Below, piece after piece: positions 12,200 through 50,952 of a stretch of 64,000 nt of DNA; position 1 is the first letter of the stretch; each line of letters starts with the position of its first letter. This stretch comes from Dehalococcoidales bacterium. GTDB taxonomy: Bacteria; Chloroflexota; Dehalococcoidia; Dehalococcoidales; JAUWZL01. The position numbers and the translations under genes are program-made. Below the pieces are notes generated by a model, which worked only from the letters and a program-made list of their open reading frames with translations, was not told the origin of the DNA and searched no databases. The stretch is from positions 999 to 64,998 of the forward strand of contig DAOUMC010000025.1 in NCBI GenBank assembly GCA_034413595.1, in the 5' to 3' direction.

Positions 12200-12221
12200 T
12201 GTCATCGCAGGCGAAGCAATC
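12200..12221. repeat. Degenerate TGTCATTGCGAG...AAGCAATC REP-like palindrome
   Basis: TGTCATCGCAG-GCG-AAGCAATC, an internally shortened version of the copies at 43805, 44134 and 47575. Confidence 0.55.
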
Positions 12222-12225
12222 GCTC

Positions 12226-14867: not shown

Positions 14868-14949
<82 letters not shown>

Positions 14950-15019
14950 GGCAACAAGAGTATTTTATCCTTTGGCGAGCAAGGTTTCAACTGTGTCCGA
15001 ACCAGTGAGGTATGATATT

Positions 15020-15424
15020 ATGTGCATTGTGAGGAAAATTCTCGCCTTTGGCGGAGTGGCCTTGGGCACAGCCGTTGTCGGCATTGCATTCGGGGTTCTG
15101 GGTGCAATCGTAGGGTCAGCCATATTGGCGGAAGACTATGCCGGCTGGGGTATTCTGGTTGGGGCTGTTATGGGTGGGGCAATCGGATATCCCGTTGGCG
15201 TTTTTATCGGGCTGGTCATAATCAACAAGCTAATACGTTACAGCGGGTCGCTGTTACTTAGTTTTATCGGAGTAGCCATAGGAGGTGTGATACCCTTCCT
15301 GGCTGAGCATCTAGGCACGAATATCGGCTCGGGGTTGCTCCTTATTTTGCCGCCGGTTTTGGGGGCAATCGGTTACCATCTGAAAGACAGGCCCTGGAGG
15401 CGACGAGCGGATTCGAACCGCTGA
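15020..15424 (+). CDS. Gly-rich multi-pass membrane protein, unknown function
   Basis: Four hydrophobic GxxxG-rich segments. Start ATG 15020 or GTG 15029; the 3' end reads antisense into tRNA-Cys. Confidence 0.6.
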   Translation: MCIVRKILAFGGVALGTAVVGIAFGVLGAIVGSAILAEDYAGWGILVGAVMGGAIGYPVGVFIGLVIINKLIRYSGSLLLSFIGVAIGGVIPFLAEHLGTNIGSGLLLILPPVLGAIGYHLKDRPWRRRADSNR

Positions 15425-15469
15425 ATAGGGGTTTTGCAGACCCCCGCCTTGCCACTTGGCTACGTCGCC
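15395..15469 (-). tRNA. tRNA-Cys(GCA)
   Basis: GGCGACGTAGCCAAGTGGCAAGGCGGGGGTCTGCAAAACCCC...GGTTCGAATCCGCTCGTCGCCTCCA. Confidence 0.95.
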
Positions 15470-15475
15470 CTAAAT

Positions 15476-15550
15476 TGGAGCGGAAGACGAGATTCGAACT
15501 CGCGATCTCCTCCTTGGCAAGGAGGCATTCTACCGCTGAACTACTTCCGC
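15476..15550 (-). tRNA. tRNA-Gly(GCC)
   Basis: GCGGAAGTAGTTCAGCGGTAGAATGCCTCCTTGCCAAGGAGG...GTTCGAATCTCGTCTTCCGCTCCA. Confidence 0.95.
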
Positions 15551-15555
15551 CCATC

Positions 15556-15641
15556 TGGTGCCGAGAGGGAGATTTGAACTCCCACGAGCCAATGCTCACT
15601 AGCCCCTCAAGCTAGCGTGTCTGCCATTCCACCATCTCGGC
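15556..15641 (-). tRNA. tRNA-Leu(GAG)
   Basis: GCCGAGATGGTGGAATGGCAGACACGCTAGCTTGAGGGGCTAG...GTTCAAATCTCCCTCTCGGCACCA. Confidence 0.93.
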
Positions 15642-15643
15642 TG

Positions 15644-15720
15644 TGGCAGGAGTGGGAGGACTCGAACCCCCGACCGGCGGTTTTGGAGACCGCTGCTCTA
15701 CCAGACTGAGCTACACTCCT
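15644..15720 (-). tRNA. tRNA-Trp(CCA)
   Basis: AGGAGTGTAGCTCAGTCTGGTAGAGCAGCGGTCTCCAAAACCGC...GGTTCGAGTCCTCCCACTCCTGCCA. Confidence 0.95.
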
Positions 15721-42490: not shown

Positions 42491-43753
<1,263 letters not shown>

Positions 43754-43804
43754 AAAAAAGTAATCCCTCTTTGGTAATGGGCTTTTCTTTGGTTATCTCA
43801 TTTT

Positions 43805-43840
43805 TGTCATTGCGAGGAGCGTCAGCGACGAAGCAATCTC
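43805..43840 (+). repeat. REP-like element, left flank of the GIY-YIG gene
   Basis: TGTCATTGCGAG-gagcgtcagcgacg-AAGCAATCTC. Confidence 0.85.
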
Positions 43841-43846
43841 AGGTCT

Positions 43847-44134
43847 ATGGATAAGCTCTATTACGTCTACATAATGACTAATAAAACAAATAAGGTGCTC
43901 TACACAGGCGTAACCAATGGGCTGAAACGGAGAGTCTACGAGCACAAGAATAAACTAGCTGAAGGATTCACCAAGAAGTATAACATTGACAAGCTCGTCT
44001 ACTATGAAGTGTGTGAGCAAGCAGAGAGTGCGATTCTGAGGGAGAAACAGATTAAAGGTGGTTCAAGGGAAAGGAAGATTAAACTGGTTAATAGTATGAA
44101 TAAAGAGTGGCGTGACCTTTATGATGAGTTGTAG
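43847..44134 (+). CDS. Stand-alone GIY-YIG nuclease (YhbQ-like)
   Basis: YYVYIM, LYTGVT..LKRRVYEH, EKQIKG, N.EWRDL; lower GC than neighbours. Confidence 0.9.
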   Translation: MDKLYYVYIMTNKTNKVLYTGVTNGLKRRVYEHKNKLAEGFTKKYNIDKLVYYEVCEQAESAILREKQIKGGSRERKIKLVNSMNKEWRDLYDEL

Positions 44135-44162
44135 AGATTGCTTTACTACGCTCGCAATGACA
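44134..44162 (-). repeat. REP-like element, right flank of the GIY-YIG gene (inverted)
   Basis: GAGATTGCTT-tactacg-CTCGCAATGACA; its reverse complement has the same arms as the left copy and overlaps the stop codon. Confidence 0.85.
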
Positions 44163-44273
44163 AGGCCCAAAGGGCTGGAAATGACTGGCCACCAGATAGC
44201 ACTTAAGCTAAGCCTGACCTTTTGGCTTTTTGAGCGTTTTACTTTAAAAGGGAAAAATCAGCCGGAAAACCTC

Positions 44274-44322
44274 TTGACAGGGCGTGATATAATGTTAAAC
44301 TGTAAACAAAGAAGGAGGTGAT
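44274..44322 (+). promoter_or_regulatory. Promoter and leader SD-like element of the S-layer-like gene
   Basis: TTGACA-16-TGn-extended TAAACT (44296-44301); AAGGAGGTGAT at 44312-44322, about 150 nt upstream of the CDS. Confidence 0.55.
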
Positions 44323-44473
44323 GCCATGGCAGGAGCCCGAAAGGGGAGGGAGTAATCTTACTCCACTGCGGATTATTAGAAGTTACCTTGGTCTCTATGT
44401 AAGCAGGGCTGAAAGGTTAGTTTTGTTTACATGGGGACGCAGAATATAAAAAGAGGAGAATTTTTTAAGGTCG

Positions 44474-47400
44474 ATGAAAAGTAAAATATCTAGAATCCTG
44501 GGAGTGGCACTGACGCTGGCAGTCCTTTCCAGCCTGTGCATCGTGGCCGCACCGGCAAGTGCCGCCACGCAGGCCTGGGACGCTTTCACCACGCCATCAA
44601 CGACCGGCATGATGCTCAATACCACCATAACCGCCGGCGGGCCAATTGCCCAGTCCCCGGTTGACGGTGCTCTGTATGCCTATGTCCTTGATGGAGGCAC
44701 TAACAAGCTCATCAAGTCCACCGATGGTGGGCGCACCTGGAAGGTCAGCGGTTCGGTCGGGCAGCCCACTGCCGCGGTAGTGGCCATCGCCCCGTCACCG
44801 GTAGAGGCCAACGTGGTCTTCTACGCCACCGCTAGCACTCTCTACCGCTCCAACGACGGCGGCGCCAACTTCACCACCGTGTTGAACGGGCCTACTAGCG
44901 AAGTTATCACCGCGCTGGACGTGACCAAGTACGGCGGCCGCTATGTGGCCGTAGTCGGCACCGATAATGCTACCGCTTCTGGCGGTGTCCTCTTCTGGGA
45001 TGAGAACGACATCTTCAACAACCTCAACCCGGTGGGCACCACCTCCTTCGGCTACCCGGTGCTGGCTCTGGCGCTGGCTCCAACTTTCACCACCGACCGG
45101 GCTCTGGTAGCCATCGGAATAGATGGCACAAATAACATGGCCATAGTGAGGACCAATGTCAACGGCGGCGCCTGGGATGCGGTTGTTGGGCCGGTTAGAC
45201 TGACCACAACTTCACCAATAGCACCGTCTCTTACTGCCCCGACGGCGGCTGACATCGCCTTCCCCAGCGACTACAACGCCACCACCAACCCCGTCTATTT
45301 CGCGTGTGTCTCCGACGCTGATGCGGCAGACGGCGGTGTTTACCGCCTCATCGGCACCACTGCCACCCGCATTGACACCGGTCTCACCTGGACTAACCTG
45401 GCGGTCAACGGCGCCTTCGGGCCGGGCAATACCACCATACTGGTCGGCTCTTCCGCAGGCGCGGTCATCAAGAGCACCAACGCCGGCTTCTCCTTCTCCA
45501 GCGTCACTTTACGCTCCAGTGTCGCAGCCCCGGCCTGGGTGCTTCTGGACAAGGACTACGCCACCAACGGAAAGGCCTATGTGCTTAACCTCGGTGCCGC
45601 CGGCGGCGCCCTCAATGTCAGCATTGATGGCATGGTCTTCTTCAACCAGTGGAGCCTCATCAACGTCACCATCACCGGCATCACTGACCTGGCCGTGGCC
45701 GCAAACGGCGATATGTTCATGATTACCGCTGGTAGCAACACCAGCATCTTCCGCTACTACGGCGGCGTCTGGGAGCGCGTGAACCAGGGCACCACCAACA
45801 ACATGGTGCGCGTTTCCCCCACCTACGCCACCGACAAGGCGGTAATGCTGGCCACCAACGGCTCGGCTGCCGCCATACTTATCTCCACCAACAACGCCAA
45901 CAGCTTCACGGCTATGGCAAGCGCGCCGGGCAGCATTGTTCTTCCGGCTGATGCCGTTTACTCACTGCTGCCGCTCTCTTCTTCCACCGTTGTCGTCGGC
46001 AGCGCTGCCGGCATCATCACCACCAACACCAGCTCTTACTGGTGGGTTGAGAGCAGCCCGTTCGGCGCCGGCTACACCGTCACCGACATCCGCCAGGCCT
46101 CCAACGGCGACCTGCTGGCGGTTGCCCAGAACGGTGCCACGGTCAAGGCCGCCAAGTCCATTGACGGCGGCGCAAGCTGGACCGTTTTCACCGCTTCTCT
46201 CACCAGTACCTCCACCAACGCCTTTATCGCCCCGGCTGCGGACTATGCCGCCACCGGTAATGTCTTCTTAGCCGTTGACGGCGGCGTCTATCGCGCCACC
46301 GCCACCGCTACCAGCTGGACACTGGTTGATGGCGGCGGCCTCGTTGCGGCGGCCGGTCTGATAACCACTCCGGGTGGACCCGGCAGCAGCGCTGAGGGTT
46401 CGGGTATGGTCTATATGACCGATGGTAACACTCTTTCTACAGCCCGTGTCGGCCGAATCCGCGGCCTCAGCACCACGGCGGAGACGGTTCTACCCGTCGG
46501 CAGCGTCACCACGTACTTCTTGAGTCTGGCGGCGGCCCCGGCGACCGTGGGCAACGTCCAGCTGTTTGCCGTTGGCAACGATGCCAAGATTTACACATAC
46601 ACGGACACCCTGAATGTGGCCGGTAGCGGCGTTGCTGTCTCGGCGGTCACCCAGACCACGGCGACAGTGAAGTGGAACAAACTGACCAGCGCCACTGCCT
46701 ATCAGGTGTTTGTCTCTGCCACGGCACAGAACAACTTCTACACGGCGGCTTCTGATGCTGGTATCACCGTGGCCGTAAACAGCACCACGCAGACGGCTAC
46801 GGTCAGCGGCCTGATACCCAACACCCAGTACTACGTCAGTGTCTGGGCGTCAACGCCTGTCTCCAGCTTCCTGTTTGGCGGCGTGGCCAAATCGTTCCAG
46901 ACGCTACCGGCAGCCCCGGTGGCACCTCCGGTCAACCTGATACCGAACAACGGCGCCCAGAATCAGCCCATCAACGACCTGGCATTCGCCTGGTCGGCAC
47001 CGTCTGGCGGCGCTGACAGCTACACGTGGCAGCTGACCACTGACCCGACGTTCGGTACCATAACCGAGGGTGAGCAGAACACCACGCTGACTTATCTGGT
47101 GTGGGCGGGCCCGCTTGAATACGACACCTCCTACTACTGGAGGGTAAGCTCTCACACCACTGCTGGCGACAGCCCCTGGGTGACCAGTGTCTTCAGCACT
47201 GTGGCTGAGCCGACACCACCGGTAACAGTTCCGCCAGCACCGACACCGACTATCGTCCTACCGACACCAACGGTAACCGTGGTGCCTCCGATAGTAACCG
47301 AAACAGTTCTACCGACACCAACGGTAACCGTAGTGCCTCCAGAGGTAACCTCGACAATTCTACCGACACCGATAATTCAGTTACCGAAAGAGGCGACTCC

Positions 47401-47488
47401 GGTCTACATCTGGGCGATTGTCGCCATCGGTGCCGTACTCACCATAGCGGTGGTTATCCTTATCGTGAGAACGAGAAGGGTAGTCTAA
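44474..47488 (+). CDS. Large secreted, C-terminally anchored surface (S-layer-like) protein with Asp-box/BNR propeller and FN3-like domains
   Basis: Signal peptide MKSKISRILGVALTLAVLSSL; SxDGGxxW Asp-boxes; FN3-like YxVxV/WxV segments; Pro/Thr linker; C-terminal TM + RTRRVV; highly biased codon usage. Confidence 0.85.
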   Translation: MKSKISRILGVALTLAVLSSLCIVAAPASAATQAWDAFTTPSTTGMMLNTTITAGGPIAQSPVDGALYAYVLDGGTNKLIKSTDGGRTWKVSGSVGQPTAAVVAIAPSPVEANVVFYATASTLYRSNDGGANFTTVLNGPTSEVITALDVTKYGGRYVAVVGTDNATASGGVLFWDENDIFNNLNPVGTTSFGYPVLALALAPTFTTDRALVAIGIDGTNNMAIVRTNVNGGAWDAVVGPVRLTTTSPIAPSLTAPTAADIAFPSDYNATTNPVYFACVSDADAADGGVYRLIGTTATRIDTGLTWTNLAVNGAFGPGNTTILVGSSAGAVIKSTNAGFSFSSVTLRSSVAAPAWVLLDKDYATNGKAYVLNLGAAGGALNVSIDGMVFFNQWSLINVTITGITDLAVAANGDMFMITAGSNTSIFRYYGGVWERVNQGTTNNMVRVSPTYATDKAVMLATNGSAAAILISTNNANSFTAMASAPGSIVLPADAVYSLLPLSSSTVVVGSAAGIITTNTSSYWWVESSPFGAGYTVTDIRQASNGDLLAVAQNGATVKAAKSIDGGASWTVFTASLTSTSTNAFIAPAADYAATGNVFLAVDGGVYRATATATSWTLVDGGGLVAAAGLITTPGGPGSSAEGSGMVYMTDGNTLSTARVGRIRGLSTTAETVLPVGSVTTYFLSLAAAPATVGNVQLFAVGNDAKIYTYTDTLNVAGSGVAVSAVTQTTATVKWNKLTSATAYQVFVSATAQNNFYTAASDAGITVAVNSTTQTATVSGLIPNTQYYVSVWASTPVSSFLFGGVAKSFQTLPAAPVAPPVNLIPNNGAQNQPINDLAFAWSAPSGGADSYTWQLTTDPTFGTITEGEQNTTLTYLVWAGPLEYDTSYYWRVSSHTTAGDSPWVTSVFSTVAEPTPPVTVPPAPTPTIVLPTPTVTVVPPIVTETVLPTPTVTVVPPEVTSTILPTPIIQLPKEATPVYIWAIVAIGAVLTIAVVILIVRTRRVV
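47258..47370 (+). repeat. 51-bp tandem repeat (about 2.2 copies) encoding LPTPTVTVVPPxVTxTx
   Basis: CTACCGACACC recurs at 47258, 47309 and 47360. Confidence 0.85.
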
Positions 47489-47574: not shown

Positions 47575-47609
47575 TGTCATTGCGAGGCACAGAGTGCCGA
47601 AGCAATCTC
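47575..47609 (+). repeat. Dispersed copy of the GIY-YIG-associated REP
   Basis: TGTCATTGCGAG-gcacagagtgccg-AAGCAATCTC. Confidence 0.85.
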
Positions 47610-50439: not shown

Positions 50440-50952
50440 ATACACTTATCAAAGACTGTTTTCGCTCTTGGCGCAGACTTGACGGTAGATACGGTGAATC
50501 TGGCAAAGCGATTGACTCTAAACCACAGACGCTCCGAGTCTGCTCTCCTAAATGTTGGGCCCGGGAAGACAAGCCGATAGGGTATTACTGGAAATGGTAG
50601 CGCCTCCCGCGTTTGGAAAAGAGGGTTGTTGCCTTTAGCTGTGTTTTGGTGAGCCTCCAGCTCTTCCTGGGTGCCCTTCTTTATTTAATGAGAGAGCCCT
50701 GAGTCAAAAATAGGCGGTTTAAAGTGAGAAAACAACCCCCCCCCTTATTGCCCATTTGTCGTATTTTGTCTCTTGATGGCTGCTGCTGTACTGTAAGGGA
50801 GTCGTTCTGTCTGGAGAAGGCTCCGTTTGTTGTGGTGACCAGACAATCAGCCCGGGAGTTTAATCTGGCTGTGGGCAGAGGTCTATGCCGGCTTTAAGCC
50901 AACGGCGATTCACACCGCTAAGAGGTGGAGCTAATAGCCTTCTCTCTCCCAC

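Follow-up and report, generated by a model that had tools for sequence, protein, structure and literature searches.

A predicted Ssn/SRM locus with a divergent class of hairpin repeats in a Dehalococcoidales bacterium

A GIY-YIG gene between inverted hairpin repeats

The window analysed here is a stretch of 64,000 nucleotides (64 kb) from a Dehalococcoidales bacterium (assembly GCA_034413595.1, contig DAOUMC010000025.1, positions 999 to 64,998). It contains a 358-bp unit between rho (42491-43753) and a gene for a 1004-amino-acid (aa) surface protein (44474-47488). In this unit a small gene encoding a GIY-YIG nuclease lies between two hairpin repeats in inverted orientation. The nuclease is homologous to SsnA of Neisseria meningitidis, which belongs to the Ssn family of nucleases, and the repeats resemble the SRM repeats on which these nucleases act. 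The gene and the repeats of the window are as follows.

43804-43840, + strand (the GTC-tagged strand): left SRM-type hairpin repeat; covariance-model hit at 43806-43840, E 3.5e-05
43847-44134, + strand: candidate ssn gene for a 95-aa single-domain GIY-YIG nuclease; open reading frame (ORF) including the stop codon, Pfam match, SsnA homology
44134-44163, - strand (the structured strand, TTGTCATTGCGAGCGTAGTAAAGCAATCTC): right SRM-type hairpin repeat; covariance-model hit at 44134-44161 (-), E 4.8e-07
47575-47609, + strand: solo SRM-type hairpin repeat without ssn; covariance-model hit, E 3.2e-05
12200-12223, + strand: possible decayed repeat remnant, TGTCATCGCAGGCGAAGCAATCGC; both arm-like halves, no core, intergenic; weak

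The left element is 37 nt long and has the sequence TTGTCATTGCGAG-GAGCGTCAGCGACG-AAGCAATCTC, which is parsed as T-TGTC-ATTGC-GA-GGAGCGTCAGCGAC-GAA-GCAAT-CTC. Its end is separated from the ATG of the nuclease gene by 6 bp (AGGTCT). The right element, read as its reverse complement, is TTGTCATTGCGAG-CGTAGTA-AAGCAATCTC. It overlaps the stop codon by 1 nt, the first base on the + strand being the G of TAG. The arms of the two elements form inverted repeats of 13 and 10 nt that are 100% complementary. An initial annotation, made from the letters of the window, had described a stand-alone 95-aa GIY-YIG gene between inverted elements, with the left copy ending 6 bp before the ATG and the right copy overlapping the stop. 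The ORF, the Pfam match, the perfect arms and the sequence at both junctions bear this out. The gene calls likewise agree with its placing of the unit between rho and the surface-protein gene, and no transposase is called in the neighbourhood of the unit.

A gene-less copy had also been reported at 47575-47609, and it is recovered. This element has both arms around a different core, GGCAC-AGA-GTGCC, and is intergenic, downstream of the surface-protein gene. The covariance model was built from 17 minimal copies found outside the window. Run with filters off over the 64 kb, it finds exactly the three copies listed, the next match having an E-value of 4.1. The arm TGTCATTGCGAG, for which 0.32 occurrences are expected, is found three times in the window, and AAGCAATCTC is present at exactly those three element sites. 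The degenerate copy claimed at 12200 fared less well. It resembles both arms, yet it is not significant, being undetected by the covariance model at E ≤ 10, and it is a decayed remnant of the repeat at best. A search of Rfam at the locus gave nothing at the gathering threshold and nothing at E ≤ 10.

The 95-aa protein matches the Pfam GIY-YIG family over residues 5-77 (E 1.2e-16). The AlphaFold model is a single compact GIY-YIG fold (pLDDT 81), and a separate DNA-binding domain is absent both from this model and from the domain search. The best matches in the PDB are the UPF0213 protein BH0048 (1ZG2, E 1.3e-3), the N-terminal domain of UvrC, and Slx1. The NCBIfam search gave no family above its cut-off, and the PADLOC and PHROGs searches gave marginal matches only. 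The protein has no Y1_Tnp match, the associated enzyme being of the GIY-YIG type and not an HUH/Y1 transposase.

The Ssn/SRM system has been described by Chenal et al. (Nat Commun 2025, PMC11893778). In N. meningitidis the nuclease SsnA, 94 aa long, consists of a single GIY-YIG domain (CDD cd10448, GIY-YIG_unchar_3). The Ssn nucleases are monomeric and active on single-stranded DNA (ssDNA) only (PMC11893778). SsnA binds the NTS repeat (CGTCATTCCCGCGMAVGCGGGAATCYRG, a subset of dRS3) as ssDNA and on one strand only, and it cuts a few nucleotides upstream of NTS; double-stranded DNA (dsDNA) and RNA are inactive as substrates, and RNA is not bound (PMC11893778). [quoted passage not shown] Deletion of ssnA raises transformation with NTS-bearing DNA about five-fold (PMC11893778). 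Three further homologues bind and cut their own repeats, which makes four characterised members in all, and repeats matching a degenerate SRM motif are found in 71% of homologue regions, on both sides in 42% (PMC11893778).

The link between the window and this system was reached through distant homologues with dRS3-type flanks in Neisseria. A BLASTP comparison with the gonococcal SsnA orthologue (L089, 589-873) gives 45% identity for the window protein over 89 aa, without gaps and with an E-value of 8e-30. With tblastn the value is 1e-19, and both lie below the E < 1e-10 used as homology criterion in PMC11893778. Y8, Y19 and E66 of the window protein align with Y6, Y17 and E64 of SsnA, and Y8, Y19, R29, E66 and N85 are invariant in alignments of 20 and 32 sequences.

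Pairing of nuclease and repeat across phyla

The window protein has more than 8000 relatives in the databases. The best 120 are 73-85% identical, the few source-named entries among them coming from Dehalococcoidales, Aerophobetes, Deltaproteobacteria and KSB1. In a scan of one genome per species at least 578 relatives were found, and 80 loci were kept. These belong to at least ten phyla, including Chloroflexota, Desulfobacterota, Planctomycetota (Brocadia, Kuenenia, Jettenia), Nitrospirota, Cyanobacteria, Omnitrophota, Elusimicrobiota and Bacillota, with 60-85% identity to the window protein.

Close homologues are nearly always flanked by the repeat. An element lies within 150 bp of the gene in 75 of the 80 loci and on both sides in 60, and in 37 the elements are arranged as in the window, the upstream one in forward and the downstream one in reverse form. 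Elements occur at 12.9 per kb within 50 bp of the gene and at about 0.12 per kb beyond 500 bp, a difference of about 100-fold over 79 loci. The downstream element overlaps the stop codon or starts 1 nt after it in about 20 loci, and 4-45 nt separate the left hairpin from the ATG downstream of it. The association of gene and repeat is beyond chance.

The suggestion in the initial annotation that the REP arms might co-vary with the phylogeny of the nuclease also holds (REP, repetitive extragenic palindrome). In a neighbour-joining tree the loci with ACCCT, ATTCT or ATCCT stems form one clade. Anaerolineae loci with GTTGC or GCTGC stems and inverted orientation form a second, and a proteobacterial group with inverted orientation forms a third. 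As judged from this tree, the type of repeat follows the nuclease. More distant homologues (40-69% identity) were taken from annotated replicons. The Planktothrix repeat is TGTC-ATTCT-GA..., that of Spirosoma is TGTC-ATCCC-GA-GGAAC-GA-GGGAT-CTTC, that of Rhizobium is CGTC-ATCCCAGGG-CTTGA-CCCTGGGAT-CC and that of Neisseria gonorrhoeae is CGTC-ATTCCCGC-GCAG-GCGGGAAT-C, which is the dRS3 repeat.

The consensus of the element class is 5'-(T)GTC / ATTGC / GA / variable stem-loop / GAA / GCAAT / CTC-3'. The 5-bp stem occurs in compensated variants (ATTGC in 248 copies, GTTGC in 12, GCTGC and ATTCT in 7 each, ATCGC in 5, ACCCT and ATCCT in 4 each), and a control with reversed sequences gave only 23 singletons. 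The inner stem, of 2-12 bp, is hypervariable in sequence with its pairing kept, and its minimal form is a mini-hairpin of the GCGAAGC type. Among 97 distinct copies aligned to the covariance model, and therefore fitted to the model itself, 99.4% of cells are paired and double changes are found in 6 of the 7 modelled pairs, a number reached by none of 500 shuffles. Cores located by the arms alone fold better than shuffled cores, with a mean z of -1.8. The purine-rich loops (GA and GAA) are confined to one strand, and the element is therefore oriented.

Of 267 elements, 99% have the G of GTC and 98% have the C that follows the stem (position +1); the scan required neither base. The T and the C of the tag are at 100%, both having been required by the scan. 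Position -1 is T in 78% and C in 13%, the tail is CTC, and the information content is zero one base outside TGTC and beyond +3 after the stem. The determinants named by the NTS mutagenesis, that is the palindrome, the 5' GTC and the 3' C, are all present in this class. The published SRM motif, HGTCWYN(0-2)YYVSBRHN(0-5)WNVSBRGN(0-2)RNCYNB, has any match in only 6 of the 80 homologous loci; the Neisseria and Rhizobium loci match.

By homology, we consider it probable that the window gene is a member of the Ssn family, that the flanking elements are its cognate SRMs and that the enzyme cleaves ssDNA. The locus appears from these comparisons to be an Ssn/SRM system with a divergent class of repeat. 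The initial annotation had proposed that a GIY-YIG enzyme recognises paired REP-like hairpins in a layout like that of RAYT genes and REPs; this has since been shown experimentally for homologues, and a preference for the repeat is seen in the published Ssn enzymes (PMC11893778). The system itself is not new and has been explained since 2025. What is new here is the repeat class and the comparative evidence on the boundaries of the unit.

Several points weigh against this assignment. The identity to a characterised member is only 45%, and the biochemistry comes from four other members of the family. None of the three window elements matches the published SRM motif. The tagged ends of the two flanking elements point outward, opposite to the ssnA locus of Neisseria, where they point toward the gene. 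There are few copies in the window, three in 64 kb, against hundreds in Neisseria, and DNA uptake by the host, a Dehalococcoidia bacterium, is supposition only. In nearest-neighbour folding the element at 47575-47609 folds as predicted (z -1.8), and the two gene-flanking copies fold no better than shuffled sequences (z +0.3 to +0.6). The gene-flanking copies are not thermodynamically special, and the case for the structure therefore rests on covariation and not on predicted stability.

The likenesses to the Ssn/NTS-SRM system of PMC11893778 include a single-domain GIY-YIG protein of about 94 aa with a catalytic Tyr/Tyr/Glu, oriented hairpin repeats on both sides that start (C/T)GTC-A and have a C as their end directly behind the stem, and dispersed solo copies, clusters and repeats that bracket a surface-protein gene. 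The window repeat differs in its 5-bp stem ATTGC/GCAAT, its purine internal loop GA/GAA and a second stem-loop of free length. A very widespread Ssn clade (60-85% identical, at least ten phyla) uses an interrupted-stem, variable-core class of hairpin that the published SRM motif misses, and current SRM censuses therefore probably undercount Ssn/SRM pairs. The invariant GTC tag and 3' C, beside stems that are compensated clade by clade, make up a natural series of enzymes and sites. This series would be useful for ssDNA-cutting tools, which the authors of the Ssn study have envisaged (PMC11893778). In terms of annotation the window is ordinary, with one ssn gene and three SRMs.

Proposed cleavage, unit boundaries and mobility

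From the properties of SsnA we infer how the locus may work. Its DNA would become single-stranded during uptake of transforming DNA, conjugation, replication or repair, and the strand 5'-TGTC-ATTGC-GA-[variable stem-loop]-GAA-GCAAT-CTC-3' would then fold into a hairpin. Ssn would recognise this hairpin by sequence and shape, with the GTC tag and the C after the stem as key contacts, and would cut that strand at a distance of a few nucleotides on the 5' side of the tag. On the model of SsnA and NTS (PMC11893778), the predicted cuts on the + strand are placed a short way left of 43805 and of 47575, and that on the - strand a short way right of 44162. These predicted sites coincide with the outer edges of the 358-bp unit, and they bracket ssn and the adjacent surface-protein gene. 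The likely outcome, as in Neisseria, would be that incoming or exposed ssDNA bearing SRMs is fragmented, so that recombination of the bracketed segments is limited or shaped.

The edges of the unit are sharp. In BLAST comparisons of the window with loci of unrelated contexts, the alignment covers segment positions 559-916, which is window 43805-44162, and the limits of similarity are the outer ends of the two elements. In syntenic relatives (Rho 88-90% identical) the gene order is the same, with CTP synthase, transaldolase, rho and the large surface protein. The empty sites between rho and the surface-protein (S-layer) gene that the initial annotation had suggested looking for are found among them: five syntenic contigs (three distinct sequences) lack the whole unit. 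Their spacer between rho and the surface gene is 269-341 bp long and holds no nuclease gene and no element. The spacer of the window measures 720 bp, or 362 bp minus the unit. The spacers of the relatives are too diverged to define the insertion point or the sequence before insertion. The closest homologue in representative genomes (81% aa identity) is from a Dehalococcoidaceae bacterium and is located after carA, and none of the 80 homologous loci has rho or the surface-protein gene nearby. We take SRM-ssn-SRM to be a unit like an insertion sequence (IS) which, within this lineage, entered the spacer that separates rho from the surface-protein gene.

Layouts of this kind are known from several systems. 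The authors of the Ssn study noted NTS-ssnA-NTS as IS-like and likened it to IS200/IS605 and RAYT/REP (PMC11893778). RAYT (TnpA_REP) and REP-REPIN systems share with Ssn/SRM a single-copy nuclease gene between its own hairpins, many solo and inverted-doublet copies, recognition of ssDNA hairpins, mostly vertical inheritance and arrays like bacterial interspersed mosaic elements (BIMEs). RAYT, however, is an HUH/Y1 transposase with a covalent 5'-phosphotyrosine intermediate, whereas Ssn is a hydrolytic GIY-YIG enzyme, and the tag is GTAG in place of GTC. Ssn/SRM is an analogue of RAYT/REP, not a homologue. In IS200/IS605 ('peel and paste', with the Y1 transposase TnpA), subterminal hairpins are also recognised in ssDNA and cleaved a few nucleotides from the foot; there is likewise no target-site duplication, and the size is minimal. 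There, however, both hairpins are on the same strand and the HUH enzyme rejoins the ends, whereas here they are on opposite strands and the enzyme cannot ligate. Classical IS elements and miniature inverted-repeat transposable elements (MITEs) have target-site duplications flanking their terminal inverted repeats, unlike the 31 Ssn units studied here. UPF0213/COG2827 (Bacillus halodurans BH0048, 1ZG2), the N-terminal domain of UvrC, and Slx1 share the fold and the catalytic core. Their sequence similarity is weak (E 0.003) and no cognate repeats are reported for them, and UvrC and Slx1 need extra domains or partners.

The repeats themselves resemble the CGTC-tagged REPs of Di Nocera et al. (BMC Genomics 2013, PMC3733652), families CGTC-1 to -4, among which dRS3 and the rickettsial RPE-4/-6 are classed. 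In these the stems start A-T, TGTC is a frequent form of the tag and there is apparently no dedicated transposase (PMC3733652). Common to both groups are a CGTC/TGTC tag and a short tail, each of them unpaired, and a stem that begins A-T; both are extragenic, often in inverted dimers, and spread over many phyla. CGTC-1 to -4 have continuous stems of 8-9 bp, loops of 4-5 nt and a CCA tail, whereas the window class has an interrupted 5-bp stem, a core of 8 to more than 40 nt and a CTC tail. The gene-less doublets found here are mostly tails-facing, whereas in PMC3733652, by that paper's own definition of head and tail, head-to-head dimers predominate and tail-to-tail dimers are rare.

The initial annotation had gone further, with the enzyme as mobiliser of the repeats or the whole as a minimal selfish unit. 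Read in this way, SRM-ssn-SRM would be an active autonomous transposon, with Ssn as a 'transposase' making a nick in each strand where the terminal hairpins have their outer foot; its non-autonomous derivatives, like REPINs or MITEs, would be the solo hairpins and the inverted doublets that lack the gene. The proposal is compatible with the enzymology of Ssn, to which it adds movement driven by Ssn, and the IS-like hypothesis was also raised by the authors of the Ssn study (PMC11893778). The sharp edges at the predicted cut points, the empty syntenic sites and the differing contexts in related genomes (the homologue after carA, and no rho or surface gene in the 80 loci) speak for it, as does a protein that is 60-85% identical over many phyla. 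Solo copies also far exceed gene-linked ones: not one of the 139 exact-arm elements found in 120 metagenome loci has an ssn homologue within 150 bp. Gene-less doublets with tails-inward geometry occur in L125 and other loci, and elements are depleted from long ORFs (36% against 75% of random positions).

The part of this proposal that concerns movement is borne out only in part. Matches like target-site duplications are no commoner in the 31 units than in shuffled pairings, and identical proteins, sought in different contexts, keep one context each on the 23 and the 14 contigs that carry them. There is a single gene copy in the window. The protein clades largely track taxonomy, as in domesticated RAYTs, and no relatives were found in 2.9 million viral contigs. 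GIY-YIG enzymes hydrolyse DNA without a covalent intermediate and therefore cannot rejoin it, and each unit has just one cleavable end per strand. No excision or insertion event was observed, and the sole role demonstrated for an Ssn enzyme is the restriction of transforming ssDNA. That the unit moves by itself is thus unproven, and we regard an active transposon as unlikely. We are similarly doubtful of a self-mobilising element of a chemically new kind, in which nicking of ssDNA by a GIY-YIG enzyme would be followed by copying completed by host replication or repair, with solo copies and doublets as progeny. If this were true, Ssn would be the long-missing 'transposase' of the CGTC/TGTC-tagged REP super-family, including dRS3 and the rickettsial RPEs, and the interrupted-stem class would be its most widespread form outside Proteobacteria. 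The unit edges that coincide with predicted cuts, the empty sites and the gene-less doublets are concrete substrates for the question of mobilisation by Ssn.

Other explanations leave out ssDNA cleavage or the pairing itself. The hairpins might be RNA-level elements (attenuators, terminators or stabilisers) that regulate ssn, with the dispersed copies as ordinary hairpins of 3' untranslated regions (UTRs). The left hairpin, at 4-45 nt from the ATG, would fall in a 5' UTR, no promoter is predicted inside the 358-bp unit, and for many REPs an action at the RNA level has been suggested by Di Nocera et al. (PMC3733652). Neither element, however, is followed by a T-tract and no terminator is predicted, so that the terminator or attenuator form was rejected. 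The flanking copies are on opposite strands and only one would be purine-looped in the mRNA; solo copies and arrays are seen in both orientations, SsnA does not bind RNA (PMC11893778) and Rfam gives no match. A role in RNA is very improbable on these grounds. A free-standing GIY-YIG homing endonuclease, making double-strand breaks at hairpin-repeat sites and spreading by gene conversion, would account for the patchy distribution and for weak matches to TIGR01453 (group I intron endonuclease, E 0.0015) and phrog_314 (phage homing endonuclease, E 5e-4). These matches are far below the curated cut-offs, though, and dsDNA is not cut by the characterised homologues (PMC11893778). The 95-aa catalytic core has no additional DNA-binding domain and the flanks are a pair of complete inverted elements and do not represent the halves of a single split target, so the dsDNA homing endonuclease was rejected; we give it slightly less credence still than the RNA reading. 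That an abundant REP family lies next to a small, unrelated gene by chance could be imagined from genomes in which the repeats are abundant and form arrays (L011, L048, L063). It is refuted by the flanking on both sides, the stems that follow the nuclease clades and the density gradient over many phyla, together with the elements that overlap or directly follow the stop codon, and its probability is practically negligible. An integron attC-like cassette was also rejected, as there are no cassette arrays and the arms differ.

Further observations on the repeats and their surroundings

The 1004-aa surface protein gene, which is S-layer-like, is itself bracketed by the SRMs at 44134-44163 (-) and 47575-47609 (+), whose tagged ends face the gene. 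This is the SRM-gene-SRM layout described for surface-protein genes of Neisseria (PMC11893778). With only three SRMs in 64 kb this bracketing could be meaningful or could be coincidental.

Part of the element end is repeated just outside the right element, at 44163-44200 (CGCAATGACAAGGCCCAAAGGGCTGGAAATGAC). Echoes of AATGAC also flank the units of L024 and L079, where 20-60 nt that follow the upstream reverse-form element recur past the downstream element. Such echoes could be footprints of recombination between hairpin copies.

Gene-less inverted doublets, with tails facing and a spacer of 6-45 nt, are found in L125 (3980-4053) and also in L112, L120, L132, L147 and L176. The doublet in L125 is a perfect 34-nt inverted pair 6 nt apart. 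The doublets are REPIN/MITE-like and have the same tails-inward geometry as the pair flanking ssn. Hairpin arrays are found beside ssn in L011, L026, L048, L060 and L063, with periods of about 73, 90, 121, 150 or 219 bp; their orientation is often alternating and they are BIME-like. In the Kuenenia metagenome-assembled genome L029 (2845-2929, 3296-3380) the inverted repeat around ssn extends 85 nt past the inner hairpins with 92% identity, giving a unit with long composite terminal inverted repeats that hold several hairpin copies. The Kuenenia loci L029 and L032 are identical, forming a 6.3-kb duplicate, and are uninformative on the ends of the unit.

The Planktothrix agardhii plasmid NZ_LR882964.1 (L087, 18847-19131) carries a 69%-identical ssn homologue with hairpins of the ATTCT/ATCCT type. 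A type IIL MmeI restriction-modification gene stands on one side of it and the DISARM helicase gene drmA on the other, the surroundings being those of a defence island. The protein of L081 (GCA_964580355.1, CAZOKD010000001.1) is identical to that of the window; its 168.6-kb contig begins only 392 nt before ssn, within the last part of rho, and an identical Rho protein is recorded on a separate 157-kb contig.

The upstream hairpin is read through in 'long' versions of the nuclease in databases (MSLRGAQRRSNLQQAK-MNKQYY...), as in L001 (2056-2391), giving proteins of 105-155 aa. The repeat translates to recurrent pseudo-peptides (SLRGA.RRSNL, CHCE..SDEAIS and EIASSL..LAMT), and these probably seed spurious ORFs, a 50-aa example being found at window 43793-43945 (-).

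The surface-protein gene is preceded by a promoter that is strongly conserved (TTGACA-16-TAAACT, 44274-44301) and by a 5' leader (window 44270-44473) with an invariant block, GCCCGAAAGGGGAG..GAGT.AT...ACTC, and small conserved hairpins. Promoter and leader are common to the syntenic loci L082 (6385-6535), L084 (4590-4770) and L086 (6430-6607) despite the otherwise diverged spacer, and the leader has no match in Rfam. A cluster of five tRNA genes is located at 14868-15720 (-), and a molybdenum cofactor (Moco) riboswitch is found at 50520-50639 (+), with 43.8 bits and an E-value of 3.7e-07.

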